A DNA stretch of 32,000 nt, taken from assembly GCF_004102945.1 (NCBI RefSeq), contig NZ_CP019384.1:1050001-1082000 (forward strand). Direction: 5' to 3'. Below, one piece after another: positions 22,894 through 25,564 of the stretch (position 1 is the stretch's first letter; every line of letters begins with the position of its first letter). Below the pieces are notes generated by a model. The model saw nothing but the letters and a program-made list of their open reading frames with translations, searched no databases and was not told where the DNA came from. The DNA comes from Candidatus Velamenicoccus archaeovorus. GTDB lineage: Bacteria; Omnitrophota; Gorgyraeia; Velamenicoccales; Velamenicoccaceae. A program made the translations under genes and the position numbers.

Positions 22894-23004
22894 GTCAACC
22901 CATATTCCCCGGCCTTGCCCTCGGCCTCCGGCCATGTTTCGGGTACCTCTAAGCGGCCTCAACACTCTCCGCCCTAAAGGGCGGAGTTTTAGGCCGCGCA
23001 GAGT
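22894..23004. repeat. structured intergenic repeat, copy 2 (111 bp)
   Basis: It is a direct-orientation match to 8536-8674. The 58-nt 3' module has the same length and is about 90% identical by eye. It contains the perfect hairpin ctccgccc-taaa-gggcggag. Confidence 0.75.
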
Positions 23005-23010
23005 GAAATC

Positions 23011-23100
23011 CAAACGGGATCCCGTCACGTCTCCGTTCAATAGAGCGGGTGATCGGAATCCCCGCCTGCCGGCGGGCAGGGAACCGACGTAACCAGCTTG
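23011..23100 (-). pseudogene. duplicated tRNA-Gly 3' portion plus trailer, with a 20-nt GC hairpin inserted in the T-loop
   Basis: 69 of 70 positions are identical to 23123-23192 (the tRNA-Gly trailer plus tRNA positions 36-73). The segment is interrupted at 23061-23080 by cccgcctgccggcgggcagg. Identity ends inside the anticodon, between positions 35 and 36. Confidence 0.8.
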
Positions 23101-23632: not shown

Positions 23633-23640
23633 TACACTAA

Positions 23641-23903
23641 GGTGGTGGCGTCGGAACAATCTGTTTCGCTTATCGCTCCACAACGATTGTTCCGGCATCC
23701 ACCATTTTTTTGCTCTGTCGCTTTACAACAAGGTGGTGGCGTCGGAACAATCTGTTTCGCTTATCGCTCCACAACGATTGTTCCGGCATCCACCATTTTT
23801 TTGCTCTGTCGCTTTACAACAAGGTGGTGGCGTCGGAACAATCTGTTTCGCTTATCGCTCCACAACGATTGTTCCGGCATCCACCATTTTTTTGCTCTGT
23901 CGC
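23641..23903 (-). repeat. perfect tandem repeat, 91-bp unit x 2.9, abutting the 3' end of tRNA-Tyr
   Basis: Units start at 23641, 23732 and 23823 and are identical at every position I compared. The last unit is cut at 81 nt, where it runs into aaaaaaatggtgg and the tRNA-Tyr CCA end. Confidence 0.92.
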
Positions 23904-23910
23904 AAAAAAA

Positions 23911-23996
23911 TGGTGGACGGGAGAGGATTCGAACCTCTGAAGCATGTGTGCAGCAGATTTACAGTCTGCCCCCTTTAGCCACTTGGGTACCCGTCC
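23911..23996 (-). tRNA. tRNA-Tyr (anticodon GUA), class II long variable arm, CCA encoded
   Basis: Hand-folded cloverleaf: GGACGGG TA CCC AAGTGGCTAAA GGG G GCAGA CTGTAAA TCTGC TGCACACATGCTTC AGAGG TTCGAAT CCTCT CCCGTCC A CCA (86 nt). Confidence 0.9.
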
Positions 23997-24198: not shown

Positions 24199-24613
24199 TC
24201 ACTTATCAAAGAAATCAAATCTGGCTTCATATCTGGAAGCCGGAACAATTTTCTCTTGCTGGTTATTTCTCGCCGGAATCAGGCGTATTTTAAAACTGCT
24301 CCTGTTGCTGATATTTTTAAGCGGTACAAAATAAACCTTGCGTGCTGCATCATGGTATGCCGCTATAATATCAACATCCAGCGGCGAATAATGAATAACT
24401 TTGTGATTATTACAACTCCTTAGGGGGATCTCAAGAATTCCGTTTTTGGCAGAGACATATTTGACTTGGACTTTTTTATAGATACCGTTCTTTTCCGCCA
24501 CCATATCAAATCTATGATCTTCTCCCCAGGGGACAAGAACATGGAAACCCCTCTGCTTGAGCAAAAAAAACATAGGCTTCGGCGATATCACCCTTGAGCT
24601 TTGTTTCTGCCAT
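24199..24613 (-). pseudogene. PD-(D/E)XK endonuclease of the group-I-intron-associated type, frameshifted in a T8 run
   Basis: The ATG at 24613-24611 directly follows the stop of the upstream gene and gives MAETKLKGDIAEAYVFF. That frame then stops after 33 codons. The 130-aa track ORF continues in another frame with LLKQRGFHVLVPWGEDHRFDMV...KKVQVKY. Removing one T from the run (plus-strand A8 at 24563-24570) joins them into a KGDIAE...G..V..P.G.....D...QVK pattern typical of this family. Confidence 0.7.
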
Positions 24614-25564
24614 TTAACGGCACCTCTTGAACGCCTTCGGCAAATAGTCTATCACATCAGAGGCGATCATCCCCGGCTGCGTCTTCTCTTTGGCGGCCAA
24701 ATCGGCAGCCAAGCCATGAATATAAACGGCGCGGCATGCCGCCTCAAAAGGCTCCATCCCCTGCCCCAAGAAAGCCGCAACGATCCCGGAAAGAACGTCA
24801 CCGCTCCCGGCTGTCGCGAGACCCGGATTGCCCGTTGTGTTTTCATAGAGCCGGCCGCGGGAAGAACACACCACACTCCTGGGCCCCTTCAAAATCAGGG
24901 TAACATTGTAACGAAGAGAAAAATCTTTTGCAACTTCTTTTCTGGCTGCCGGCGCGGCGACAATCCGACGGCCGCAGAGACGTTCCATCTCCCCGGGGTG
25001 CGGTGTGAGGACAACAGGATGCTTCAATCCTCTCAGGATGCCCAAATGCCCCGCCATGGCATTAAGGCCGTCGGCATCCACGACCACCGGCGTCGAGGCA
25101 CGTCTCACCAGAGAACGTATCAATGCCTGCGTGGAAGGATGACGCGACATGCCGCAGCCAACCAGAAGACAATCAGATTTTTTCAAGACCGGCACGAGCT
25201 GCGGCAACGCCCTTTCAGAAACACTCTGTTGAGCCGTCGAACGCAACGGAAGCGTCACGACTTCCCTTACACCGCAAGCAATGACACCCTGGAGGCTCTC
25301 AGGAAAAGCGAGGGTCACGTATCCAGCACCGGATCTCATGGCGGCCCCGGAACACAAAAGAGCGGCGCCCGTATAACTCCGCGAACCGGCCACGATCAGG
25401 ACATGCCCGTAATCGCCTTTGTGCGTTTGCTTCTTACGATCAAAGAATAGCGCTGGCCACAGCATAGTGATCCGTATGGGACAAGGAGAGGGCGATAGAA
25501 GTCTTTCTATTCTTGATGCGGCAGAAAGGCCGCCCGTTAACATCATTGATGATCTCGATATCAC
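24614..25564 (-). CDS. nnrD: ADP-dependent NAD(P)H-hydrate dehydratase (YjeF C-terminal type only)
   Basis: HKGDYGHVLIVAGSRSYTGAALLCSGAAMRSGAGYVTL and GSGDVLSGIVAAFL match the carbohydrate-kinase-like Nnr dehydratase. The start is uncertain: the ORF is open from 25564, and an internal Met at 25465 (MLWPALFFDRKKQTHKG) is also plausible. Either start overlaps the end of acpS. Confidence 0.85.
   Translation of the reverse strand: MISRSSMMLTGGLSAASRIERLLSPSPCPIRITMLWPALFFDRKKQTHKGDYGHVLIVAGSRSYTGAALLCSGAAMRSGAGYVTLAFPESLQGVIACGVREVVTLPLRSTAQQSVSERALPQLVPVLKKSDCLLVGCGMSRHPSTQALIRSLVRRASTPVVVDADGLNAMAGHLGILRGLKHPVVLTPHPGEMERLCGRRIVAAPAARKEVAKDFSLRYNVTLILKGPRSVVCSSRGRLYENTTGNPGLATAGSGDVLSGIVAAFLGQGMEPFEAACRAVYIHGLAADLAAKEKTQPGMIASDVIDYLPKAFKRCR

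Follow-up and report, generated by a model that had tools for sequence, protein, structure and literature searches.

A 32,000-nucleotide stretch of the genome of Candidatus Velamenicoccus archaeovorus, an Omnitrophota bacterium (contig NZ_CP019384.1, positions 1,050,001 to 1,082,000; this whole stretch is called the window), carries a nuclease gene between nnrD and a tRNA-Thr(UGU)-Tyr-Gly cluster. The gene belongs to the family of I-Ssp6803I and, as assembled, is split over two reading frames. It is probably a free-standing homing endonuclease gene in decay, one that has been moving as a cassette together with the tRNA-Thr gene beside it. This reading draws on the family and fold of the protein, the lesion as seen against an intact allele, filled and empty versions of the same site, a patchy distribution, adjacency to tRNA-Thr in several phyla, and linkage to a foreign tRNA-Thr allele.

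The gene, its family and its fold

The nuclease gene lies on the minus strand, exactly where an earlier note on this DNA had placed it. Its ATG at 24613 directly abuts the nnrD stop codon TAA (24616-24614), and its TGA is separated from tRNA-Thr(UGU) by three nucleotides (TTT). The gene is translationally coupled to nnrD through the junction TAAATG, and the terminal nnrD codons hold a Shine-Dalgarno-like GAGGTG ahead of the nuclease ATG. The upstream frame translates as MAETKLKGDIAEAYVFF, then turns to nonsense and reaches a stop after 33 codons. The second frame is open over 24199-24591, reads ...LLKQRGFHVLVPWGEDHRFDMV...VQVKY... (also given as ...LLKQRGFHVLVPWGEDHRFDMVAEKNGIYKKVQVKY...) and ends at the TGA. 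As the note had also described, the two frames meet in a T8 run of the coding strand, an A8 run on the plus strand.

Both pieces match the Pfam profile PF11645 (PDDEXK_5), which has a curated cut-off of 26.1 bits. The 130-residue downstream piece scores 78.1 bits over profile positions 18-137, the 33-residue upstream piece scores 12.2 bits over positions 2-32, and the protein read through the break scores 90.3 bits over positions 2-137 of 138. Since the homology runs on across the frame break, chance would not give a match divided between two frames in this way. The profile search, which the earlier note had suggested, thus confirms its assignment to the I-Ssp6803I type of PD-(D/E)XK nucleases, and comparisons of sequence and fold agree. 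Among solved structures the read-through protein matched a single one by sequence, I-Ssp6803I (PDB entry 2OST; E 2e-7). An AlphaFold2 model of the intact allele of a close strain (P0001; predicted local distance difference test score, pLDDT, 82.9) was compared with the PDB using Foldseek, and the four 2OST chains were the best matches (2OST_A: template modelling score, TM, 0.75; E 3.5e-11). SPARDA nuclease domains and archaeal Hjc resolvases followed as much weaker structural matches. The Holliday-junction resolvase Hjc (PDB entry 1GEF; E 2e-4), the next-best match outside SPARDA, has the same core restriction-endonuclease-like fold, but its TM score is only 0.50, and it is a conserved housekeeping enzyme rather than a patchy, site-linked insertion. 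NCBIfam models gave no match to the nuclease protein. This is the sole PF11645 gene in the whole genome.

Residues T4, K5, K7, G8, A11, E12, D37, Q50 and K52 are invariant in 14 homologues. D37 and Q50-x-K52 fill the PD-(D/E)XK positions, and E12 is located on helix 1 (model residues 3-21), where many PD-(D/E)XK enzymes keep an extra catalytic acid (PMC3424549). As assembled, no single open reading frame (ORF) unites the catalytic residues: D37, Q50 and K52 are encoded downstream of the break, and E12 and the other helix-1 invariants upstream. All of them are united in the intact allele of a metagenome contig described below (L012; G and L numbers are our handles for genomes and loci). The break falls after codon 15 and leaves an annotated downstream ORF of 124 residues (P0016), from which six family-invariant residues are missing.

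Apart from the three tRNAs, no group I intron or other Rfam RNA was found between positions 22900 and 25000, so the gene is free-standing. The ORF does not lie within an intron but takes up the spacer between the nnrD stop and the tRNA, and the 74-nt tRNA-Thr is uninterrupted. The layout of the locus therefore upholds the earlier description of a free-standing gene adjoining a tRNA-Thr(UGU)-Tyr-Gly cluster. On its sequence, it probably encodes a free-standing homing endonuclease of the I-Ssp6803I family (PD-(D/E)XK, PF11645), with cleavage activity predicted.

Filled and empty sites and the linked tRNA-Thr allele

In a genome of the same GTDB genus (G002), nnrD is followed after 14 nt by tRNA-Thr(UGU)-Tyr-Gly, and the nuclease gene is absent. 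Empty sites, with 0-70 nt between nnrD and tRNA-Thr, are found in G002, G007, G010, G011, G012, G013, G020, G026, G027 and G032, and in other families; filled sites are found in the genome of the window (G000) and in G003, G009 and G030. Overall, the site lacks the nuclease gene in G002 and 18 or more further genomes and holds it in 18 or more species. Where it is filled, the ORF occupies nearly the whole spacer, starting 0-14 nt past nnrD or overlapping it, and ending 3-14 nt before the tRNA. The distribution is patchy and the phylogeny of the gene incongruent with that of the hosts: in an even sample of the class the nuclease gene is present in 13 of 299 genomes, from at least nine families, its clade occurs in several phyla, and the clades of its tree follow the tRNA partner.

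Presence of the nuclease gene is linked to a different allele of the tRNA-Thr gene itself. The allele beside the window's nuclease gene (type A, GCTGGCG...CTCACTTGTAATGAG...) differs from that of G002 and eight other nuclease-free genomes in six genera of the same family, f1 (type B, GCCGAAG...CTGTTTTGTAAACAG...). Among themselves, type B copies show 97-100% identity, but their identity to type A is only 69%. The flanks are conserved, tRNA-Tyr being 97-98% and tRNA-Gly 92% identical between the window and most nuclease-free f1 relatives. In the Thr-Tyr spacer, the genomes G000 and G002 are about 90% alike from about 17 nt past tRNA-Thr, so the differing segment consists of the nuclease ORF, tRNA-Thr and a short trailer. 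This segment measures about 0.5 kb in the window and about 0.1 kb in G002; one of its edges falls within the final nnrD codons, the other about 17 nt past tRNA-Thr.

The same contrast was found in two further families. Between the nuclease-bearing G301 and the nuclease-free G215 of family f20, tRNA-Thr is 79% identical, and both tRNA-Tyr and tRNA-Gly are 100% identical; for G282 (with) and G069 (without) of family f7 the values are 74%, 91% and 99%. Taking the closest such pair in each of the three families, tRNA-Thr identity is 69-79% and that of tRNA-Tyr and tRNA-Gly 91-100%, although identity of the flanking tRNAs varies between 76 and 100% when all pairs are counted, with lower flank identity in other f1 and f7 pairings. 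Type A alleles, by comparison, are 89-100% alike across families. The nuclease gene is present in 6 of 11 genomes with a type-A-like allele and in 0 of 26 with a full-length type-B-like allele (at least 88% identity); the odds ratio of 48 for the association of nuclease gene and type A is inflated by relatedness and by the way loci were collected. Type B is 84% identical to the genome's own tRNA-Thr(CGU) and type A 65%, which fits type B being the native allele of the lineage. A foreign tRNA-Thr beside conserved tRNA-Tyr and tRNA-Gly genes fits co-conversion of the flanks of a homing gene.

A candidate signature of immunity in the anticodon arm (CTCACTTGTAATGAG in most linked alleles, CTGTTTTGTAAACAG in type B) is not claimed here, because the nuclease-bearing loci L022 and L024 (and L105, a duplicate of L024) break the pattern.

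A constant tRNA partner across phyla

A survey of one genome per prokaryotic species yielded 53 loci. The earlier note had proposed a search for intact orthologues next to tRNA genes in relatives; such orthologues exist, and they adjoin tRNA-Thr(UGU). All Omnitrophota orthologues (54-68% identity) are located between nnrD and tRNA-Thr(UGU). In at least six phyla (Omnitrophota, Aerophobetes, Margulisiibacteriota, Acidobacteriota, Gammaproteobacteria and the candidate phyla radiation, CPR), the distance between orthologue and tRNA-Thr(UGU) is 3-27 nt. Outside Omnitrophota nnrD is absent and the neighbours on the other side differ, but tRNA-Thr(UGU) still adjoins. The distance is 3 nt in Aerophobetes, 6-10 nt in Margulisiibacteriota/WOR-1, about 10 nt in Pyrinomonadaceae, and 4 nt, on the opposite strand, in an unclassified bacterium. 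In two Gammaproteobacteria and one Magasanikbacteria genome the nuclease gene is found 12-27 nt downstream of tRNA-Thr(UGU), and in one archaeon 179 nt from it. By chance, the end of a random gene of the window's genome would fall within 30 nt of any tRNA in about 0.3% of cases.

Four more Omnitrophota genomes show the downstream order nnrD-tRNA-Thr-nuclease-tRNA-Tyr (43-49% identity; L108-L111, which are G180, G062, G065 and G303). In a maximum-likelihood tree of the proteins, clades track the identity of the tRNA and the side of insertion, not the host phylum (support 95/92 for the clade upstream of tRNA-Thr and 100/96 for a clade associated with tRNA-Pro). Distant phage homologues are located inside tRNA arrays in five of seven GenBank phage hits and in three of five full-length viral-contig hits. 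A search for close phage or viral relatives that might serve as a transfer vehicle found only relatives of at most 38% identity, many of them in tRNA arrays.

Several further placements were noted. The downstream sub-clade as a whole (42-49% identity) includes two Gammaproteobacteria and one CPR genome (L037, L039 and L040). A distant PF11645 clade (30-38% identity) is found 200-630 nt from tRNA-Pro(UGG) in Omnitrophota, Gammaproteobacteria, Cytophagales and Hydrogenimonas (L006, L007, L009, L046, L051, L063, L065 and L069), and PF11645 members of the Bacillus group lie about 1.2 kb from tRNA-Gly(UCC). Viral PF11645 ORFs that abut or overlap the next tRNA occur at L115:1486-1971, L116:1504-1946, L121:890-1426 and L122:405-992; the viral examples are Synechococcus phage Sf-FR1, Streptomyces phage Navo, Halorubrum virus HSTV-4 and one IMG/VR contig.

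It is plausible, although we put it forward tentatively, that PF11645 nucleases form a cross-domain class of free-standing tRNA-gene homing endonucleases. Each clade would have its own partner (upstream of Thr(UGU), downstream of Thr(UGU), or Pro(UGG)) and would spread as nuclease and tRNA cassettes that overwrite the resident, often single-copy and essential, tRNA gene. This reading spans bacterial chromosomes of many phyla, an archaeon and phage tRNA arrays.

The lesion and the probable decay of the gene

The metagenome contig L012 (GCA_041890195.1) is 98.8% identical to the window over 5.7 kb and encodes an intact allele of 138 residues. It reads GTT CTT TTT TTG (GTTCTTTTTTTG) where the window has GTTTTTTTTG, and all other bases of the gene are identical. 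Compared base for base, the lesion is therefore a loss of 2 nt from a 138-residue gene; it is not the one extra T supposed by the earlier note, for which a run of seven would have been intact. As a result the first 15 codons, which encode most of helix 1 and the invariant Glu12, no longer share a frame with the catalytic core.

In other lineages the gene is damaged in other ways. In a third strain (L013-15) codon 41 is changed from GAA to TAA in 12 contigs from several JGI and Logan samples. The congeneric G003 has an internal deletion of about 80 nt and a stop within its nuclease gene, and in a Pyrinomonadaceae contig (L042), at a coverage of just 1.1x, the frame shifts at codon 76. Clearly, this group can do without the gene. 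Among intact alleles, the ratio of non-synonymous to synonymous polymorphism (pN/pS) is 0.07-0.16, which indicates purifying selection on the nuclease until recently. The window copy, inactivated by loss of 2 nt in a T-rich run, matches the decay stage expected in the life cycle of homing endonucleases, and one genus displays each expected stage: an empty site and intact, frameshifted, nonsense and deleted copies. By itself the frameshift would be an ordinary pseudogene, or possibly a consensus error, and it is the context that carries the interest.

That the assembly is at fault is somewhat unlikely, and such an error would affect the broken state alone, not the identity or the context of the gene. 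The organism would then carry an intact gene, for example with TTCT7 or T10 miscalled as T8 in the pyrimidine run, and the following points weigh against the pseudogene part of our interpretation. The lesion falls in the only long homopolymer of the gene, the remainder of the gene is 100% identical to the intact allele with no added decay, and exact look-ups of the 124- and 130-residue products found the frameshift allele in no other assembly. Against an error, a C is lost along with a T, which is not a simple miscount of run length, and the 2-nt gap is the sole coding indel between the window and L012 across ftsH, folP, cdaA, pdxJ, acpS and nnrD (about 5 kb); the remaining gaps all lie within the divergent tRNA-Thr/tRNA-Tyr spacer. 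The internal control offered by the earlier note, a T8 run at 1504-1511, is indeed in frame within a long ORF, and genome-wide 685 runs of at least 7 nt, 109 of them of 8 nt, are in frame in long ORFs. Together with the comparison with L012, these runs rule against a genome-wide homopolymer artefact, and the note's view that run lengths are not systematically miscalled holds. The closed genome of Candidatus Velamenicoccus is CP019384 (PMC12583861), and later HiFi and Illumina data 'confirmed the genome sequence', although not at base level (PMC12583861). The independent, real lesions of sister lineages also show that the gene can be dispensed with. It is highly improbable that the broken frame is functional, with T8 acting as a programmed +1 frameshift, a site of transcriptional slippage or a phase-variation switch that keeps nuclease expression low. 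Runs of eight U or A are known slippage sites, the required shift from frame 0 to +1 is possible on UUU UUU U, and a toxic nuclease might gain from low expression. Close strains, however, are in frame through TTCT7, every other full-length orthologue is a single ORF, orthologues beyond the species group lack the T run, and the unrelated lesions of other lineages inactivate the gene outright. A programmed frameshift was rejected for this lack of conservation of both the slippery site and the two-frame layout, so that of the options listed in the earlier note a pseudogene is favoured over phase variation and a programmed shift.

A frame-switch signature was recorded at 39 runs genome-wide, an upper bound that includes normal gene junctions. 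Outside the window, long ORFs of two frames meet at a G21 run (G000:C1:652717-652737), which could mark a phase-variable or broken gene.

Proposed mechanism and comparison with known systems

By analogy with I-Ssp6803I, the intact enzyme would cut the resident tRNA-Thr(UGU) locus in genomes that lack the nuclease gene, and the adjacent, linked tRNA-Thr allele would presumably resist cleavage. Repair off the carrier copy would then bring in the nuclease gene and its tRNA-Thr allele together. The spreading unit would be a cassette of about 0.5 kb replacing the resident single-copy tRNA-Thr gene, and the window copy would represent the decay phase after fixation. Intronless homing, co-conversion and decay after fixation have been described (PMC3984707).

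I-Ssp6803I, from the tRNA-fMet group I intron of Synechocystis, and the window protein share their Pfam family, fold, length of about 140 residues, D...QxK positions and tie to a tRNA gene; I-Ssp6803I reads a pseudo-palindromic site in a tRNA gene (PMC3384342). However, the I-Ssp6803I gene lies within an anticodon-loop group I intron, whereas the window gene occupies an intergenic spacer, with no ribozyme and an uninterrupted tRNA-Thr. The two proteins are 27-32% identical, the 2OST chain has Gln at the position of E12, and the window copy is broken. The closest worked example of this type of homing is SegB of phage T4, a GIY-YIG nuclease whose gene is likewise free-standing among tRNA genes (PMC2330249). 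SegB brings about the preferential inheritance of its own gene and of neighbouring tRNA genes by intronless homing with co-conversion (PMC2330249). It differs in nuclease fold, in its setting of phage co-infection rather than bacterial chromosomes, and in its demonstrated activity, which for the window protein is predicted. F-CphI with the cyanophage psbA intron, and T4 mobE with I-TevIII, are cases of collaborative or trans homing (PMC3984707, PMC2790892). The window, in contrast, lacks an intron, and it is tRNA-Thr that stays constant as the partner across phyla, rather than the intron-bearing tRNA-Tyr.

Several points weigh against a cassette that moves by homing. We infer from analogy that the enzyme cuts DNA, which site it cuts, that the linked allele resists cutting and that transfer proceeds by gene conversion. 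Biased queries were used to sample loci with and without the nuclease gene, and the related genomes among them do not count as independent observations. Because nnrD is just about 50% identical between families, conversion driven by upstream homology is hard to picture for long-range transfers. Type A occurs without the nuclease gene in G010, G020, G099, G118, G185 and G297, and no convincing nuclease remnants were found in the spacers of these six genomes; that of G020 has a weak '...DLPLEE*' resemblance, and its nnrD C-terminus is like that of G000. Three nuclease-bearing genomes have other tRNA-Thr alleles. Type A could thus be a preferred context for insertion and not a co-converted immune allele, and, given its presence in nuclease-free genomes, causation may run in either direction.

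Alternative roles and partners of the nuclease

It is very unlikely that the nuclease is a host factor (a repair, processing or defence nuclease linked to the tRNA operon) that is inherited and lost as an accessory gene with no self-mobilising activity. The low pN/pS speaks of selection on the protein, the gene is translationally coupled to nnrD, and PADLOC gave a weak 'HEase' match. Such a role sits poorly with a prevalence of 4% scattered over at least nine families, an insertion exactly the size of the ORF at one site, the same tRNA species alongside in unrelated phyla where other neighbours differ, linkage to a foreign tRNA allele, and repeated inactivation. A group I intron as the true partner, in a collaborative form of homing, is quite unlikely. 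The target would then be the anticodon loop of tRNA-Tyr rather than tRNA-Thr, and the window an intron-less remnant. Of 18 nuclease-bearing Omnitrophota loci, 7 have a tRNA-Tyr interrupted by a group I intron (Rfam RF00028, 88-106 bits), against 0 of 19 nuclease-free ones (Fisher p = 0.003), the prototype I-Ssp6803I cuts the insertion site of an intron in a tRNA gene (PMC3384342), and NCBI calls one relative a 'group I intron-associated PD-(D/E)XK endonuclease'. On the other side, tRNA-Tyr is intronless in the window and in 10 other nuclease-bearing loci. In f20, the intronless tRNA-Tyr is 100% identical with and without the nuclease gene, so carrier and target could not be told apart by it. 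In Margulisiibacteriota, Aerophobetes and L033 the nuclease gene adjoins tRNA-Thr(UGU) with no tRNA-Tyr or intron nearby. Introns could merely ride in co-conversion tracts, and on these three grounds we favour an intron riding in the same tracts over an intron as the true partner.

It is scarcely credible that half-tRNAs at the Pro, Pro-like and Gly loci were duplicated by faulty repair after an endonuclease had cut the anticodon region, as the earlier note proposed. Half-tRNA copies do exist at the Pro and Gly loci, and family members do lie by tRNA-Pro(UGG) and tRNA-Gly(UCC) in other sub-clades and genomes. This clade, however, tracks tRNA-Thr(UGU) in every lineage examined, and tRNA-Thr has no partial copy. 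The genome has its single PF11645 gene only, and the window's Pro gene is GGG where the partner of the other clade is UGG. A 3' fragment of tRNA-Gly follows the intact gene (window 23011-23100) and is also present in a sister lineage (L016:4300-4440) with an intact nuclease gene, where it matches the tRNA-Gly allele of the window and not L016's own intact one. The fragment therefore predates the split of the lineages and is independent of whether the nuclease is intact or broken. It also suggests allele turnover at tRNA-Gly.

Features of the locus and other observations

Table 1. Positions of the nuclease gene, its parts and its flanks in the window
Feature	Position	Strand	Basis or remark
Whole PF11645 endonuclease gene, split over two frames	24199..24613	-	90.3 bits; identical to the L012 138-residue allele except for a 2-nt gap
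Lesion, T8 run; closest intact allele has TTCTTTTTTT, 2 nt missing	24563..24570	-	Comparison with L012
Upstream frame, 33-codon ORF; first 15-17 codons alone homologous, most of helix 1 including T4/K5/K7/G8/A11/E12	24512..24613	-	Profile match, invariant columns
Downstream frame as publicly annotated, 124 residues, internal ATG; D37, Q50 and K52 present, helix-1 start absent	24199..24573	-	PF11645 match
tRNA-Thr(UGU), type A allele; sole UGU isoacceptor gene of the genome	24122..24195	-	69% identity to G002 allele
Short trailer after tRNA-Thr, unlike G002; right edge of replaced segment	24105..24121	-	Similarity resumes about 17 nt past the tRNA
nnrD (Carb_kinase, PF01256), left flank	24614..25564	-	Last codons differ between filled and empty sites
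tRNA-Tyr(GUA), right flank, intronless here	23911..23996	-	97-98% in most nuclease-free relatives of the same family

Some repeats and introns of the region were noted in their own right. In L016 an insert of 140 bp with a GC-rich hairpin (L016:2860-3000; CCCTGCCCGCCGCTCGCGGCGGGC...) separates the nnrD stop from the nuclease ATG, and at about 23060-23080 of the window the T-loop of the tRNA-Gly fragment is broken by a hairpin of a similar kind (CCCTGCCCGCCGGCAGGCGGGG); these may be a small element like a repetitive extragenic palindrome (REP) or a miniature inverted-repeat transposable element (MITE). Three 91-bp tandem units follow tRNA-Tyr (window 23633-23905), each ending in a copy of the tRNA 3' end, and related units are present in G002 (L090). 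Introns of tRNA-Tyr score 76-106 bits overall and were found at L020:3538-3742, L022, L023, L024, L025, L027, L028 and L110, one of which is a locus of the downstream type.

Significance

Among PD-(D/E)XK homing endonucleases, one intron-encoded enzyme, I-Ssp6803I, is known experimentally, and the same family is seen here free-standing in bacterial chromosomes. I-Ssp6803I has been described only as an intron-encoded, mainly cyanobacterial enzyme (PMC3384342), and PF11645 has been noted only for a patchy distribution resembling horizontal gene transfer (PMC3424549). Literature searches returned no description of free-standing PF11645 genes locked to tRNA genes. The new element here is that the nuclease gene is linked to a replaced tRNA allele, a pattern repeated in three families. 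New nucleases with long sites and predictable natural targets are a possible use. If the cassette model is true, it would provide a testable route for the exchange of essential single-copy tRNA genes between distant bacteria. If the cross-domain reading is also true, the family would represent a dedicated mechanism for the horizontal replacement of core tRNA genes.

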